Virus record (IMG/VR): IMGVR_UViG_2778261227_000006
Origin: a virus
Taxonomy: Duplodnaviria; Heunggongvirae; Uroviricota; Caudoviricetes
Strand: one strand, 5' to 3'
DNA: 16,208 nt
The notes below the pieces were generated by a model, which saw only the letters and a list, made by a program, of their open reading frames with translations, ran no database searches and was not told where the DNA came from. The position numbers and the translations under genes are program-made. This document shows, one piece after another, positions 8,065 through 13,733 of the stretch; within the stretch, counting starts at the first letter, position 1; each line of letters starts with the position of its first letter.

Positions 8065-8076
8065 AGGTCGCCGCCC
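8065..8076. other. cosN cohesive-end sequence (12-nt overhang of the mature genome)
   Basis: Plus strand aggtcgccgccc is the reverse complement of GGGCGGCGACCT, the lambda 12-nt cohesive end; flanked on the right by cgtaacctgtcggatcgccgg, matching the lambda right end (cosQ side). Confidence 0.85.
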
Positions 8077-8566: not shown

Positions 8567-8977
8567 ATGGATCAGGTAGTCATTTTTAAACAAATATTTG
8601 ATAAAGTTCGAAACGATTTAAACTATCAATGGTTTTATTCTGAGCTAAAACGTCACAATGTCTCACATTACATTTACTATTTAGCCACAGAGAATGTTCA
8701 TATTGTATTAAAAAATGATAATACAGTGTTATTAAAGGGCCTAAAAAACATTGTGTCTGTCAAATTTTCAAAGGATAGGCATCTTATAGAAACGACCTCT
8801 AATAAGCTGAAATCCAGAGAGATCACATTTCAGGAATACAGAAGAAACCTTGCTAAAGCAGGAGTTTTTCGGTGGGTTACAAATATCCACGAACAAAAAA
8901 GATATTACTATACCTTTGATAATTCATTACTATTTACTGAAAGCATCCAGAAAACTACACAGATCTTACCACGCTAA
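8567..8977 (+). CDS. ydfO: DUF1398-type protein (YdfO/YbcV-like, 136 aa from second ATG; alternative ATG at 8552)
   Basis: [40 protein letters not shown]... matches my recollection of YdfO/YbcV; GGAAGG SD 7 nt upstream of ATG 8567; stop TAA at 8975-8977. Confidence 0.75.
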
Positions 8978-9128
8978 ACCATAACGTCCGGCTTCTCTCA
9001 CTCCTGAGCCGGACTGCATTGGTTTAATAAAAACCATCAACAATTGTGATTTAGATATTCGGAACCATTCAAATATAACAAAACCCCGTAAAAACGAGGT
9101 TTATGGATAAATTTTATTATTGAATACA

Positions 9129-9302
9129 TCAGATTAAATTAATCTTGACATCATAGCTTTCAAGACCCGTCATTTTTTCCCGTGCGGTAAACTGAATACT
9201 GGTAACTTCTTTCCCGGTCTTTTTCTTAAGTTCAATAATTTTTTTTGTTATATATTCAGAAATATCTGCTTCTGCTTTTGTTTTTAAGTTTTCAATATTC
9301 AT
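9129..9302 (-). CDS. gnsB: GnsA/GnsB family protein (57 aa; not in ORF track because under 60 aa)
   Basis: Manual translation of minus strand: (M)MNIENLKTKAEADISEYITKKIIELKKKTGKEVTSIQFTAREKMTGLESYDVKINLI, closely resembling GnsA/GnsB as recalled; tandem ATGs at 9305 and 9302. Confidence 0.7.
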   Translation of the reverse strand: MNIENLKTKAEADISEYITKKIIELKKKTGKEVTSIQFTAREKMTGLESYDVKINLI

Positions 9303-9473
9303 CATTTCCTCTTTTAGTCTGTTATGACTTTCCAGTTACACAGTAAGTCGATTATATGGTGCAAACGTGTAAAAGATAAGATGAAACATCGCAATAATCA
9401 ACATACGATAGTCTAAATTTTACACAAACAGACAAAGAAAATTTTCCTGAATTATCAATACAATAGCATCAAA

Positions 9474-9704
9474 TCAACTCAAGAGCCTTATTGCTGCTTC
9501 CAGAATTTCTTCTGAAGTAACATGTCGATCCGCGGCTACATAAATGACTTTATGATCTCCGGTCAGAGATGGAAACCCTGCGGCCATTACAGTAAGGTGT
9601 GTTTTTTCGCCATTTGGATATTCACGCATGATGGTGTTAACTCCAGTCATCGCTGGCACTACCACTGCAGGTTCAGAGTTAAAAAAAACTATGATTTTTT
9701 TCAT
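9474..9704 (-). CDS. ynfN: Hypothetical small protein in the position of ynfN (76 aa from ATG 9704; a 51-aa product would start at ATG 9629)
   Basis: ORF MKKIIVFFNSEPAVVVPAMTGVNTIMREYPNGEKTHLTVMAAGFPSLTGDHKVIYVAADRHVTSEEILEAAIRLLS; non-repetitive; sits between cspI and gnsB as ynfN does in Qin; no clear SD at either start, so the start is uncertain and the symbol is positional. Confidence 0.5.
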   Translation of the reverse strand: MKKIIVFFNSEPAVVVPAMTGVNTIMREYPNGEKTHLTVMAAGFPSLTGDHKVIYVAADRHVTSEEILEAAIRLLS

Positions 9705-9746
9705 GATGTTACCGTAGTATGTGAGTATCCATCGAATAGATACCAA

Positions 9747-9770
9747 GCAAAAAAGCTCCCGAAGGAGCCT
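9747..9770 (-). terminator. Rho-independent terminator (UUCG tetraloop hairpin + U6)
   Basis: Minus strand: GGCUCC-UUCG-GGAGC followed by UUUUUU (plus 9748-9769); lies downstream of cspI and upstream of the ynfN-like ORF. Confidence 0.6.
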
Positions 9771-9975
9771 TCATTTTCACTTTTTTAAATCCAACGACAG
9801 ACGGCTGGCATTTAAGTATTGTGAAATATTATCAAATGTAATCATCATTGATTTACAAAAGATACATTTTGCCCCGAAAGGATTCATGTCAGAAACATCA
9901 AAAGATGATGTTCTATACTGGGAACCATGACAACACGGGCATCTAAAGTGAATATGGTTTGTAATATTGTCTACC

Positions 9976-10188
9976 TCAAAGCGCCACTACATGAACAGCG
10001 GCAGGACCTTTAGGTCCGTTCTCAATATCAAATTCAACTTCCTGATTCTCAGTTAATGTTTTGAAATCGTTGCTCTGAATTGCTGAGAAATGGACAAACA
10101 CATCTTTGCTGCCATCTTTCGGCGTGATGAAACCAAAACCTTTTTCAGGGTTAAACCATTTCACTAAACCAGTCATTTTGTTAGACAT
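9976..10188 (-). CDS. cspI: Cold-shock protein, CspA family (70 aa, CspI-like)
   Basis: [70 protein letters not shown] with the KGFGFI and VFVHF RNP motifs; ATG at 10188..10186; long AT-rich 5' leader upstream. Confidence 0.9.
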
Positions 10189-10551
10189 AATTATTACCTT
10201 TTGAAGAAATTAGCCCTTGGGCAGAATGGTCCGAAAAAAAATATCAGAGAGAAAAACCAACAAGGAAATCTCAAGAGGTACAAATAATAAAATTATAACA
10301 ATGACTGCTTCAGATAAATTTGTAACAAACCAGAACACCATTAACGCATGATTAACCACCCATAGCAAGGATTACTTTTGTAAAGAAAAACACAGCAATG
10401 AAAGAATAGCTTTATTTATTAATAATAACGTGTCATTCTGATTAAGACCTTTTATCTTACCCTTAAGATTTCAGGAATTTTGGCTCATGGAAGAGTCCTT
10501 TTTATTTAAATTTTACATTCCGCGATGTAAATGTTCCGATTTAATATTACC

Positions 10552-11575
<1,024 letters not shown>

Positions 11576-11891: not shown

Positions 11892-12107
11892 TTACTCTCC
11901 TCTCGCAGCCTTACGCCTGTCTTCTTTAATCTTGAAATAAAGATTTGTCAGATACGTCAGCAGGCCAAAAACCAGGCTACCCAGCACACCGATTGCAGCC
12001 CACTGTGACGGAGTTACTTTATCGAGTAACTGCAATGCCCAGAAACCAGCATTACCCGCCGATGTGCCATAGGCAACACCTGTTGTTAACTTATCCATTG
12101 ATTTCAT
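11892..12107 (-). CDS. essQ: Class II holin / pinholin (S21-like, 71 aa) with dual-start motif
   Basis: [71 protein letters not shown]: two TM segments, charged C-terminus, Met1-Lys-Ser-Met4 dual start (ATGs at 12107 and 12098); track ORF start at 12182 rejected. Confidence 0.88.
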
Positions 12108-12326
12108 ATCCTCACCCCGATGTACACGGATGGTGCAATATGTTTGAAAAGATCGGAGTCTACGGGGTAGTTTTGACAGCACACGTTGTTCTCAACGGCG
12201 CTAAAAAAACATACACATTAAAAATGTGGGTAATTATTTTGAAAGAAAGTCATATATAAAATAATAATACGAGAAATGTTTTCATATTTAGTGTACTGTA
12301 TACGGCCATTTATACAGGAAAAGCCT

Positions 12327-12497
12327 ATGTCAGAACGTAAAAACTCAAAATCACGCCGTAATTATCTCGTTAAATGTTCCTGCCCAAACTGCACCCAAGA
12401 GTCAGAACACAGTTTTTCAAGAGTACAAAAAGGTGCCCTTTTGATCTGCCCTCATTGCAACAAAGTATTCCAGACAAATCTTAAAGATGTAGCCTGA
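12327..12497 (+). CDS. Small zinc-ribbon-like protein (56 aa), antisense to the late operon
   Basis: ATG 12327 preceded by AGGA SD (ACAGGAAAAGCCTATG); MSERKNSKSRRNYLVKCSCPNCTQESEHSFSRVQKGALLICPHCNKVFQTNLKDVA with two CxxC pairs 20 residues apart; TGA at 12495-12497; hairpin/terminator about 60 nt downstream. Confidence 0.5.
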   Translation: MSERKNSKSRRNYLVKCSCPNCTQESEHSFSRVQKGALLICPHCNKVFQTNLKDVA

Positions 12498-12556
12498 TTG
12501 ATTTTATTAGTAACAAGTATTTTTTATATTTTAATAATATATTTAAAGCAGATAAT

Positions 12557-12580
12557 AAAAAACCCGCCTGAGCGGGTTTG
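12557..12580 (-). terminator. Rho-independent terminator (strongest on the minus strand; possibly bidirectional)
   Basis: Stem AAACCCGC/GCGGGTTT (12560-12567 / 12572-12579), loop CTGA; on the minus strand the hairpin is followed by UUUUUU-AUUAU. Confidence 0.6.
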
Positions 12581-12860
12581 AGATTGTGGTGCTTTTTGTG
12601 GGAGTCATCCACTTACGCACTTTGTTTTGCCATGCCAGCAGTTAGCTTCTGCTGTAAAACTATTCATGCAGCAAACCTGCACTTCACCACAATGGTTAGC
12701 ATACTTTTCCTGATTAAGATTTTGCCAAATATGCTAGCCATTGTTTCATGTATTGGACCTCCTTACTTTTTATTAAAGAGATCCAATATTCACTACTCTG
12801 TCCGTATCTCTACTCAGGCATCAGCCTTCTTCGTTATCGTATACAGACGAGCGATGAATT

Positions 12861-13076
12861 TTAATCAGTAATGATGACATTTGCTGCTGCAGGACCTTTA
12901 GCACCACTCTCTATAGAGAAGGTAACCTTTTGACCTTCAAATAAGGTTCGATAATTATCATTCTGAATCGCAGAAAAATGCACAAACACATCTTTACTAC
13001 CATCAACAGGAGAAATAAAGCCGAAACCTTTATCAGCGTTAAACCATTTTACTAAACCAGTCATTTTATTTGACAT
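12861..13076 (-). CDS. cspB: Cold-shock protein, CspA family (71 aa, CspB-like)
   Basis: [71 protein letters not shown]; ATG at 13076..13074; TAA at 12861-12863. Confidence 0.9.
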
Positions 13077-13376
13077 TCTACATTCCTTAACTTGAGCCTT
13101 TCGGCATAAATGGTTTGCATAACAGAAACGACTTCGTACTTAATTGGAGAGACTCAAAGAAGGAATAAGTGAATAACACCTGAAATGAGAACTGCTTTAG
13201 TAAACTACTTCGTATATCGTCTGTTCTTCAAACCGACGCAATCATTAACGCATAGTTGAACATATGAAGCAATGTTTATTTTAGACATCCAGCCATCTTC
13301 AACCCCATCAAAAAACTATAGCTTTCTTCAGGAACGTGTGTATAGTGCGCCAAGTTATCAGTATTAAGGAATTTTT

Positions 13377-13589
13377 TTGTCCCGTAAAATGACAGGAATT
13401 GTCAAAACCTTTGACGGCAAAAGCGGCAAGGGTCTTATCACCCCATCCGATGGTCGTATCGATGTCCAGCTTCATGTCTCAGCGCTCAATCTCCGCGATG
13501 CAGAAGAAATTACCACCGGATTACGCGTGGAATTTTGCCGGATAAATGGTCTGCGTGGCCCTTCAGCTGCCAATGTTTACCTTTCATGA
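13377..13589 (+). CDS. cspF: Cold-shock-domain protein (70 aa, CspF/CspH-like), TTG start
   Basis: (M)[69 protein letters not shown]; AAGGA SD at 13366-13370 sits 6 nt before TTG 13377; divergent from cspB. Confidence 0.85.
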
Positions 13590-13643
13590 GCTATATTAAA
13601 GCTTTAATTTCAGGCCCCATCGGATCACACATGGAGAGTTTTT

Positions 13644-13733
13644 ATGAATAACCCCGTCTGTCTTGATGACTGGTTGATTGGCTTTAAAAGCTTATGCTGT
13701 ACTTTGGCCGTAATAGCTCTGCTAATAATATAA
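13644..13733 (+). CDS. Candidate 29-aa hydrophobic mini-protein downstream of cspF
   Basis: GGAGAG SD (13633-13638), 5-nt spacer, ATG 13644; [29 protein letters not shown] then TAA (13731-13733); single predicted TM helix; terminator hairpin follows at 13882. Confidence 0.35.

Follow-up and report, generated by a model that had tools for sequence, protein, structure and literature searches.

Organisation of the cspI-ynfQ-ynfR-ynfN-gnsB gene string in a Qin-type lambdoid prophage of Escherichia coli

Gene content and genomic setting

The DNA analysed here, referred to as the window, is a stretch of 16,208 nucleotides from a virus (Caudoviricetes; IMG/VR record IMGVR_UViG_2778261227_000006), and all positions are given in its coordinates. 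Between positions 9129 and 10188, its minus strand carries the five small genes cspI, ynfQ, ynfR, ynfN and gnsB. The string is flanked by rzpQ (10552-11049) on one side and by an exact lambda cosN sequence (8065-8076) on the other, and it is transcribed in the same direction as Q and the lysis and terminase genes, so that the location from Rz to cos and the orientation described in the initial annotation were confirmed. The same applies to the minus strand and the coordinates given there for cspI, an open reading frame of 76 codons, gnsB and a hairpin. However, three genes had been counted in an interval in which five are annotated, as ynfQ (9777-9965) and ynfR (9709-9774) had been overlooked.

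A RefSeq locus with five annotated genes is 100% identical to the window over positions 8900-10600, and the Qin prophage of E. coli K-12 contains the identical five genes in the same order (b1552, b4724, b4749, b1551 and b1550) with a DNA identity of 99.6%. The flanks are also alike, with rzpQ on one side and ydfO-ynfO-nohA on the other, whereas the head genes and the intact lambda cosN retained by the prophage in the window are missing from K-12 Qin beyond nohA. The gene string is already known and annotated; it forms the cold-shock cargo at the right end of a lambdoid E. coli prophage of the Qin type. Since its annotation as five genes exists in both RefSeq and K-12, the string is ordinary except for the annotation corrections given below; it does not represent a novel type of system, and its practical value lies in annotation. 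PADLOC returned no defence-system match in the string, only a generic match to CSD, and an Rfam scan at a permissive threshold found no RNA family in its spacers. The features are listed below in the direction of transcription.

10340-10368, minus strand: putative cspI promoter with -35 TTGCTA (10363-10368), a 17-nt spacer and an extended -10 TGcGTTAAT (10340-10348)
10189-10334, minus strand: cspI 5' leader of 146 nt, cspA-type cold thermoregulator (Rfam RF01766)
9976-10188, minus strand: cspI, CspA-family cold-shock protein of 70 aa (Pfam CSD, PF00313, 110.9 bits, cut-off 27)
9777-9965, minus strand: ynfQ (YmcF-like), zinc-ribbon small protein of 62 aa (Pfam PF23641, 109.9 bits, positions 1-62 of 62)
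9709-9774, minus strand: ynfR, 21 aa, annotated in RefSeq; the open reading frame spans the hairpin and U-tract
9749-9769, minus strand: intrinsic-terminator-like hairpin GGCUCC-UUCG-GGAGC (9755-9769) followed by U6 (9749-9754)
9474-9704, minus strand: ynfN, 76 aa, with a run of T8 at 9681-9688
9366-9401, minus strand: promoter-like block upstream of gns, TTGATT (9396-9401), a 17-nt spacer and TATCTT (9373-9378)
9129-9302, minus strand: gnsB, GnsA/GnsB family, 57 aa (Pfam PF08178, GnsAB_toxin, 120.3 bits)
9071-9102, minus strand: terminator-like hairpin with a T-rich tail after gnsB (scan match 9102-9081, 9 pairs)

The cspI-ynfQ bicistron

The assignment of the first gene to the CspA family in the initial annotation agrees with the Pfam CSD match, and its translation contains the RNP1 (KGFGFI) and RNP2 (VFVHF) motifs; the RefSeq product name is "cold shock protein CspI". 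CspI is 79% identical to CspG, and its score of 137.8 against the NCBIfam CspG equivalog falls under the cut-off of 144, which means that CspI is not CspG itself. The block ATCATGCGTTAAT is common to the promoter regions of cspI and cspG. Transcription of cspI would start near position 10334, where the alignment to the Rfam cspA model begins; position 1 of this model is what we take to be the 5' end of the cspA mRNA. The match to the cspA thermoregulator RF01766 (9949-10334) covers the leader and coding region at full length and reaches 112.6 bits, above the gathering score of 78 (E = 1e-28) and below the 158.8 bits of the cspB copy in the window. The terminator part of the model is unmatched at cspI, because ynfQ comes after the gene instead. 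The cspI 5'UTR has been reported as an RNA thermometer (PMC13271884).

The supposed gap of 200 nt between cspI and the hairpin is filled by ynfQ. This gene starts with ATT (9963-9965), 10 nt past the cspI stop TGA (9976-9978), and its Shine-Dalgarno GAGG (9974-9977) overlaps this stop codon. Upstream of the ATT, an in-frame stop lies at 21 nt with no canonical start in between, and a start at the first canonical codon (ATG 9887) would lose the first, invariant CxxC pair. YnfQ is 66% identical to K-12 YmcF; of its zinc-ribbon cysteines (CPCC...CIFC), C9, C12 and C37 are invariant among 25 members and C34 is nearly so, and the dN/dS values range from 0.07 to 0.21. As a consequence of the ATT start, ynfQ is regularly missed in phage annotations; the gene is uncalled in phage 2H10, and YnfQ has no PHROG family.

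A csp gene lies directly upstream of the ymcF-like gene in 51 of the 80 Enterobacteriaceae loci collected, with a gap of 9-10 nt in 50 of these 51 and an ATT or ATC start likewise in 50, and ymcF-like copies without csp linkage start with ATG in 17 of 29 cases; as the 80 loci are phylogenetically related, such counts overstate their independence. Together, csp and the ymcF-like gene form a conserved bicistron that is the recurrent core across the loci. With the ATT situated 10 nt past the cspI stop and a Shine-Dalgarno that contains this stop, translation of ynfQ is probably coupled to that of cspI, as this geometry and its conservation suggest. YmcF carries cold-shock labels in databases and papers ("cold shock small protein YmcF", "cold shock induced"); the preprint of Weaver 2019 does not mention ynfQ/ymcF, cspI or gnsA/gnsB.

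Hairpin, ynfN and the gns unit

The strong UUCG-loop terminator described in the initial annotation was found as a hairpin of the C(UUCG)G type, with six GC-rich pairs, a following U-tract and a fold of -14.5 kcal/mol (z = -2.5 vs shuffles), whose extended stem begins 5 nt past the ynfQ stop. In 52 of the 80 loci, a hairpin with a T-run lies behind the stop of the ymcF-like gene, compared with 7.9% of control windows. Among these hairpins there are 24 different stem sequences, with a conserved position: 44 of the 52 begin at -1 to +9 nt relative to the ymcF-like stop codon. The cspG locus has such a hairpin after ymcF, and in distant lineages the interval between ymcF and ynfN keeps one with quite different stem sequences; nine csp-ymcF-ynfN loci are without a hairpin of this type.

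The ynfR stop lies 4 nt ahead of the ynfN ATG. In K-12, YnfR-SPA shows strong cold-shock induction and is barely detectable at 37°C (PMC6001520), and its SPA tag sits 3' of the U-tract. RNA-seq data from K-12, whose ynfN is frameshifted, show nearly identical induction of cspI, ynfQ and ynfN after AZT with the same dependence on LexA and SspA, and parallel changes of cspI and ynfN in long-term stationary phase. Since ynfR and ynfN are expressed downstream of the hairpin and co-vary with cspI in these published data, termination would be at most partial, i.e., leaky. The main texts of both RNA-seq papers leave gnsB unmentioned, which is absence of evidence and does not prove independent regulation. 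As a conserved small protein, YnfR was rejected: alleles of the CFT073/2H10 type, 92-94% identical, have a premature stop (12 aa), and in other genera the open reading frame is absent or different.

The reading frame of ynfN is open from ATG 9704 (76 aa) to its end at 9474 with an internal ATG at 9629 (51 aa), as described in the initial annotation, and the protein searches recommended there returned homologues of 52-76% identity, all of 75-76 aa and with a conserved N-terminus. With dN/dS values of 0.07-0.22, this conserved protein contradicts the possibility, raised in the initial annotation, of a non-conserved middle ORF, and the comparison identifies ynfN as a real 76-aa gene under purifying selection. 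The 51-aa form annotated in K-12 Qin is the product of a frameshift and a remnant: the run of T8 (9681-9688) in the intact ynfN of the window is T7 in K-12, and the span measures 1350 nt and not 1351 nt in the K-12-lineage records and a few others. The annotation of ynfN should therefore read 76 aa. The lack of an obvious Shine-Dalgarno holds for the window allele, where the site is weak (ACGGTAAcatcATG), but not for its relatives, which have GGAG, GGTGG or GGGG there; a recognisable promoter of its own was not found for ynfN. An AF2 model of YnfN (pLDDT 88) has five strands and a helix, and no structural relatives of it were found. Since the K-12 form would lack about half of the beta-sheet in this model, functional data on K-12 ynfN are probably uninformative. 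A profile search with YnfN against 1.84 billion representative proteins gave only 46 clusters, with lengths mostly around 75 aa and some shorter fragments, and none of them contained a larger multidomain protein hinting at function.

The last gene belongs to the GnsA/GnsB family as proposed, on the basis of PF08178 and of a match to the GnsA structures PDB 4XO1/4XO2 (E = 5e-20). GnsB is 67% identical to GnsA, gnsB has dN/dS values of 0.04-0.22, and its Shine-Dalgarno is AAGAGG (9308-9313). As cited from Sugai 2001 in later literature, overexpression of GnsA or GnsB leads to more unsaturated fatty acids and suppresses the fabA6 and secG-null mutations, and in line with this GnsB probably shifts membrane lipids toward unsaturated fatty acids. 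The link of the string to cold and membrane lipids suggested in the initial annotation is plausible in view of this overexpression effect, the cspA-type leader and the cold induction of YnfR.

The block upstream of gns is kept in loci of the Qin type, in Citrobacter prophages and in chromosomal loci of the cspG type, with a differing -10-like part at the cspG locus. By our own count it has 8 of 12 consensus matches, under the threshold of the promoter scan, which listed no site at 9366-9401; the block is probably a promoter. TATAAT at 9351-9356 was rejected as the gnsB -10, having no acceptable -35 at 16-18 nt and no conservation of the hexamer in other genera. The terminator-like hairpin after gnsB is kept in 7 of 7 aligned alleles. 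As gns is found without ynfN and ynfN without gns, and gns comes with a conserved upstream block and a terminator of its own, the gns unit is to be regarded as autonomous on these comparative grounds.

Relation to the cspG locus and proposed organisation

A paralogous chromosomal locus exists in E. coli, as stated in the initial annotation, and lies outside any prophage. It has a homologous promoter, leader, csp (79% at the amino acid level), ymcF/ynfQ (66%) and gns (67%), and it shares with the window the ATT start 10 nt past csp, a hairpin immediately behind the stop and the block preceding gns. However, it contains the four genes cspG-ymcF-ymcE-gnsA, without ynfN and without ynfR, so that the string of five genes in the window and the cspG locus do not present the same trio. 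DNA homology between the two loci ends past the hairpin and returns in the gns upstream region. The annotated ymcE open reading frame extends over the hairpin and over the block upstream of gns, and it is unrelated to ynfN; YnfN and YmcE gave no alignment at E <= 100. In other Escherichia species, the ymcE start codon is lost or the frame is shifted, with ymcF and gnsA intact. The analogy between the loci thus stood for csp, ymcF/ynfQ, the hairpin and gns and failed for the middle gene.

A model in which three genes make up an operon or regulon for cold shock and membrane lipids, duplicated as cspG-ymcE-gnsA, appears improbable against this background, even though the csp and the gns genes of the two loci are paralogues, both loci are compact and co-directional, and cold induction extends at least to ynfR. 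The gene counts of five and four do not fit it, the combination csp-ymcF-ynfN-gns occurs in only 13 of the 80 ymcF-like loci, where csp-ymcF is the recurrent core, and gns has its own conserved upstream block. With YnfN and YmcE unrelated, the locus census as it is and ymcE not conserved within Escherichia, the comparative evidence argues that this model is largely refuted. Even less credible, and in our estimation very improbable, is a toxin-antitoxin pair of YnfN and GnsB, modelled on the proposed pairing of YmcE as antitoxin with GnsA as toxin. It could draw on the Pfam/NCBI family name "GnsA/GnsB toxin / addiction module toxin", on the position of ynfN directly upstream of gnsB and on literature that places ymcE-gnsA among type II systems, citing the GnsA crystal-structure paper. 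However, as YnfN and YmcE show no similarity, no ymcE-homologous antitoxin gene lies beside gnsB, and 171 nt with the conserved promoter-like block part ynfN from gnsB, which is no tight bicistron. Moreover, 13 of the 26 loci with ynfN have no gns, one locus has gns with neither ynfN nor ymcE, the ymcE frame is disrupted in several Escherichia species with intact gnsA, K-12 has gnsB alongside a shortened ynfN, and PADLOC gives no match. The ymcE open reading frame finds poor support in the comparative data, and so does the label "YmcE-GnsA toxin-antitoxin", which has been extended to GnsB in the form of "addiction module toxin".

We consider it likely that the string is a composite phage moron of three units, i.e., the csp-ymcF bicistron, ynfN as a readthrough gene and the gns unit. 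In the first unit, cspI would be transcribed from its own promoter with a cspA-type 5' leader permitting expression in the cold, and ynfQ would be translated from its ATT, probably coupled to cspI, with the leaky hairpin and U-tract as the end of the unit. The second unit would consist of ynfN, expressed by readthrough of the hairpin, with ynfR translated on the same readthrough RNA, and the third of the gns upstream block, probably a promoter, the strong Shine-Dalgarno, gnsB and the terminator. In the lysogen, the string would be driven from the cspI promoter by cold and other stresses; during lytic growth, its orientation suggests that Q-modified late transcription would cross it entirely.

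A further reading treats the hairpin as a regulated switch and not merely as leaky, in that melting by Csp or the ribosome ending ynfQ would block its formation, which we regard as rather unlikely. Antitermination by CspA-family proteins, which melt RNA, is established, and the AZT RNA-seq paper mentions it too. In favour of a switch, the hairpins at -1 to +9 nt of the stop would be within reach of a terminating ribosome, a hairpin is retained in the ymcF-ynfN interval of distant lineages despite differing stems, and YnfR turns from barely detectable at 37°C to strongly induced in the cold. However, control by the cspI promoter and leader alone suffices for the cold induction of YnfR, the equal fold-induction of cspI and ynfN is uninformative on the readthrough fraction, and the nine csp-ymcF-ynfN loci have no such hairpin. 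That ynfR, ynfN and possibly gnsB are on only during active expression of csp-ynfQ in the cold is doubtful to the same extent, and the general formulation, in which the hairpin 1-9 nt past the ymcF/ynfQ stop is a conserved conditional terminator whose readthrough depends on the csp-ynfQ products or their translation, is put forward as a tentative proposal of low probability. If true, phages would carry a self-contained cold-triggered feed-forward switch, and the "YmcE antitoxin" would be an annotation artefact over a hairpin terminator and gns leader.

The composite organisation can be compared with lambdoid morons such as lambda bor and lom, which are autonomous units of cargo placed between modules of late genes. 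Like these, the string is located between the modules for lysis and packaging and has promoter-like (predicted) and terminator-like elements of its own. It is present in only some related phages, and also in prophages whose terminase types differ. Unlike the morons named, it is a composite of two or three units built around a cold-shock bicistron of the chromosomal type. Temperate phages thus carry a host-type cold-shock bicistron and a lipid-modulating gene, a plausible cargo for lysogen fitness. The cold-shock module is found in the sequenced phages Tritos, PhiR42_1, 2H10, mEp460 and HannyBb and in prophages with other terminase types, and it is present in 2152 of 5426 E. coli genomes.

Gene content of the cspI-gnsB string

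The interval between 9129 and 10188, which the initial annotation had described as a string of three genes, contains five annotated genes (cspI-ynfQ-ynfR-ynfN-gnsB) in a RefSeq genome that is 100% identical to the window over 8900-10600, and the identical five-gene list is found in E. coli K-12 with 99.6% identity. cspI, the middle ORF with both of its ATGs, gnsB and the UUCG hairpin were all located on the minus strand as claimed, whereas ynfQ and ynfR had been missed. The apparent 200-nt gap from cspI to the hairpin is occupied by ynfQ, which was not seen in the initial annotation or in the mechanical ORF list because its start codon is ATT; PGAP names it ymcF or "cold shock small protein YmcF".

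Features of the string
9976-10188, minus: cspI, 70 aa (ORF list and sequence)
9777-9965, minus: ynfQ, 62 aa, ATT start at 9963-9965
9709-9774, minus: ynfR, 21 aa (RefSeq and K-12 annotation)
9755-9769, minus: hairpin GGCUCC-UUCG-GGAGC, with U6 at 9749-9754
End 9474, minus: ynfN ORF, ATG 9704 (76 aa), internal ATG 9629 (51 aa)
9129-9302, minus: gnsB, 57 aa (a tandem ATG at 9303-9305 would make 58 aa)
9081-9102: terminator-like hairpin 3' of gnsB (scan)

All genes of the string were previously annotated and a cold-shock link has been published for cspI, ynfQ and ynfR, so the finding as such was already known. Of use beyond this are a corrected length for ynfN, the doubt cast on both ymcE and the toxin-antitoxin label, and the observation that ynfQ is systematically under-annotated in phage genomes. 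An Rfam search at a permissive threshold gave no match besides the cspA element, and the string genes are not mentioned in the Weaver 2019 preprint.

The csp-ymcF unit, its hairpin and probable readthrough

The product of ynfQ is matched over its full length by the YmcF-like Pfam family PF23641 (109.9 bits). A survey of ymcF-like genes, in which one genome per species was scanned, yielded 80 loci and identified csp-ymcF as the conserved core.

Layouts of the ymcF-like loci
ymcF alone: 25/80 loci
csp-ymcF: 19/80 loci
csp-ymcF-ynfN-gns: 13/80 loci
csp-ymcF-ynfN: 9/80 loci
csp-ymcF-ymcE-gns: 9/80 loci (eight Escherichia/Shigella-type cspG loci, one of them binned in a Mucilaginibacter MAG; the ninth, from Citrobacter sp. 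NCU1, has a weak and partial ymcE match)
ymcF-ynfN: 4/80 loci
csp-ymcF-gns: 1/80 loci

The csp stop and the ymcF start are 9-10 nt apart in 50 of the 51 csp-linked loci, where the Shine-Dalgarno sequence of ymcF (TAAGG or TGAGG) also contains the csp stop codon. The start codon of the csp-linked genes is ATT in 46 cases, ATC in four and ATG in one, whereas 17 of the 29 copies without a csp link start with ATG, so that non-canonical starts seem to go together with the coupled arrangement. Copies without a csp directly upstream occur in Klebsiella, Raoultella, Silvania and others (L045-L098), mostly with ATG. Upstream of the ynfQ ATT in the window, the frame is closed by a stop codon at a distance of 21 nt, and the interval contains no canonical start; the first ATG (9887) would remove the first CxxC pair, in which C9 and C12 are invariant. 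A dN/dS of 0.07-0.21 was obtained for ynfQ, which is putatively coupled to csp in translation. In the structure predicted for YnfQ, a disordered tail is attached to a zinc ribbon; structural comparison of the model returned no significant relative. PHROGs has no family for YnfQ, and genes with an ATT start are systematically missed in phage records. In phage 2H10 (L005) ynfQ is intact as an ORF, but the deposited record leaves the interval from the cold-shock gene to the ynfN homologue (between 3425 and 3697) empty. Three enterobacterial csp-ymcF loci are binned as Veillonella parvula or Mucilaginibacter or assembled with a Chryseobacterium isolate (L020, L070 and L091); L020 and L070 have the E. 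coli csp-ymcF sequence and L091 a Scandinavium-like one, and these taxa most likely reflect binning or assembly contamination of public genomes.

The hairpin after ynfQ has a folding energy of -14.5 kcal/mol (z = -2.5 against shuffles). Its designation as a terminator was borne out by the survey: in 52 of the 80 loci the ymcF-like stop is followed by a GC-rich hairpin with a T-run, compared with 7.9% of control windows from the same loci, and in 44 of these 52 the distance between stop codon and hairpin start is -1 to +9 nt. The hairpin thus belongs to the conserved make-up of the csp-ymcF unit; its loop-closing stem occurs in 24 different versions. An A6G/CT6 inverted repeat (9749-9755 and 9780-9786) places an A-tract upstream and the U-tract downstream of the hairpin, which the terminator scan also scored as terminator-like on the plus strand.

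Published K-12 data speak against a tight stop at this hairpin. The YnfR-SPA fusion, with its tag 3' of the U-tract, can hardly be seen at 37 °C and shows strong cold-shock induction (PMC6001520). AZT raises expression of cspI 6.5-fold, of ynfQ 5.9-fold and of ynfN 5.8-fold, with matching LexA and SspA dependence (PMC11228462), cspI and ynfN change in parallel during long-term stationary phase (PMC7406224), and butanol co-represses cspG, cspI, ymcF and ynfQ (published K-12 data). The main text of PMC6001520, PMC11228462 and PMC7406224 does not mention gnsB. The ynfR start lies within the 5' arm of the hairpin, and the ORF continues through the U-tract. It is only 12 aa long in CFT073/2H10-type alleles, and in other genera different short ORFs, or none, take its place; it was thus rejected as a conserved protein and is regarded as a lineage-specific translation product of the readthrough RNA.

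The best-supported reading is that the string is a composite cargo of three units. A cold-inducible csp-ymcF bicistron would end in the leaky terminator, ynfN would depend on readthrough with ynfR translated in passing, and gns would form a semi-autonomous unit; during lytic growth, late Q-dependent transcription may run through the whole string, as its orientation suggests. The direct basis comprises gene identities, conservation, start-codon and hairpin statistics and homology breakpoints, while cold induction and transcript co-variation are taken from the literature; the string promoters, the degree of readthrough and any physiological role are putative. A true three-gene operon is a weak alternative. 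It is possible that the terminator is conditional, under the control of Csp proteins or the ribosome.

ynfN, ymcE and the gns unit

A search of 5.8 billion proteins found full-length ynfN homologues in Citrobacter and other Enterobacteriaceae (52-76% identity), all of 75-76 aa with the first 25 residues conserved and M1, K3, V6, F7, F8 and N9 nearly invariant; with pairwise dN/dS of 0.07-0.22 relative to the window gene, ynfN is a real 76-aa gene. Its Shine-Dalgarno sequence is indeed weak, as noted at the outset, but only in this allele, since relatives have GGAG, GGTGG or GGGG. The minus-strand T8 run at 9681-9688 is T7 in the K-12 string (L003), where the frame closes after 14 codons; the 51-aa annotation results from this frameshift, and the K-12 reference gene is a remnant. 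The AlphaFold model (pLDDT 88) has five strands and a C-terminal helix, and since residues 1-25 supply strands 1-2 and part of strand 3, the 51-aa product is probably defective. PHROGs lists separate 76-aa and truncated 51-aa families, each of "unknown function", and with only 46 clusters in a set of 1.84 billion representative proteins the family is a small one. In strain BS-01 ynfN has another frameshift than in K-12. A census of the ynfN alleles with short BLAST queries gave no hits, presumably an effect of low-complexity filtering. Three metagenomic relatives carry an extra diverged paralogue (35-55% identity) upstream of csp (L015 and L016, 2037-2279; L017, 725-952) besides a copy downstream of ymcF; no gns was seen in the flank available for these loci, and their ymcF is not followed by a canonical hairpin.

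The K-12 cspG locus, cited initially as a cspG-ymcE-gnsA trio, contains four genes, cspG-ymcF-ymcE-gnsA. Protein identities are 79% for CspI/CspG, 66% for YnfQ/YmcF and 67% for GnsB/GnsA, whereas YnfN and YmcE gave no alignment. DNA homology with the string covers promoter, leader, csp, ymcF/ynfQ and hairpin, breaks after the hairpin and resumes from the gns upstream region. There, a TTGATTATTGa..cTTTC block and the stretch to the AAGAGG Shine-Dalgarno sequence are common to the gns genes of Qin-type strings, Citrobacter prophages and the chromosomal cspG locus, and in the cspG locus the block lies inside the annotated ymcE ORF. The cspG locus thus corresponds to a Qin-type string without ynfN, with the "ymcE" ORF spread across the terminator and the region upstream of gns. 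Within the genus Escherichia (K-12 ymcE, L002 2348-2578; others L050, L059, L061, L065 and L069), the ymcE ATG is lost in E. albertii, Escherichia sp. E1V33 and one E. coli strain, E. whittamii and E1V33 have a 1-nt deletion, and E. ruysiae has indels and stops; the adjacent ymcF and gnsA show no indels in the same alignment. ymcE is thus probably not a conserved protein-coding gene. As YnfN and YmcE cannot be aligned and ymcE is unstable, the trio is not an ancestral three-gene unit and the middle ORFs are not counterparts.

The product of gnsB matches the GnsA/GnsB family and the solved GnsA structure (dN/dS 0.04-0.22). Overexpression of GnsA/GnsB is described as increasing unsaturated fatty acids and rescuing cold-sensitive phenotypes. 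The "addiction module toxin" label stems from the proposed YmcE-GnsA pair, an annotation undermined by the instability of the ymcE ORF, and is not transferable to YnfN-GnsB. That YnfN and GnsB form a toxin-antitoxin pair is a weak alternative: YnfN has no homology to YmcE, co-occurrence of ynfN and gns is incomplete, a PADLOC search gave no match, and the 171-nt spacer between the genes carries a conserved promoter-like block at 9366-9401 (TTGATT, 17 nt, TATCTT; 8/12 consensus positions by our own count), at which the promoter scan listed no site.

Position in the phage genome

The window is a Qin-type prophage with intact head genes. The string has the same orientation as Q, the holin, lysozyme and Rz genes, nohA and the head genes, in agreement with the proposed late-operon orientation, and its placement between Rz and cos was likewise confirmed by its flanks, rzpQ (10552-11049) and an exact match to the lambda cosN sequence GGGCGGCGACCT (12 nt, 8065-8076) between nohA and ynfO. 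A single match is within chance expectation for a 12-mer search with up to two mismatches, but this one is credible because it adjoins the terminase genes. The string occupies the extreme right end of the phage map, directly before cos. It is present in the sequenced phages Tritos, PhiR42_1, PhiR63_1, 2H10, HannyBb and mEp460 (91-99.8% identity), and of 5426 complete E. coli genomes 2152 have it. In prophages whose packaging module is of another kind (HNH/TerS/TerL), versions about 75% identical in protein sequence are found after the lysis cassette. Placement and distribution fit a moron-type cargo region.

A second cold-shock cluster (12326-13732: ynfU, plus; cspB, minus; cspF, plus; a 29-aa ynfS-like ORF, plus) lies between Q and the holin gene, so that csp cargo is found on both sides of the lysis cassette; the Rfam cspA thermoregulator was detected at cspB (12845-13237, 158.8 bits). 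In strain AL.H8, the closest complete genome, the IS66-family element ISEc22 is inserted between essD and ynfU (L001 12277-14609) and is absent from the window at about 12107-12325. The 180-nt gap from the Rz stop to the cspI promoter region contains a perfect 7-bp inverted repeat, TTTACAT-N6-ATGTAAA (10512-10531). A minus-strand ORF in another frame within rzpQ (10602-10874) contains rzoQ, an Rz1-type lipoprotein gene of 255 nt in K-12, and this nesting is an ordinary spanin arrangement.
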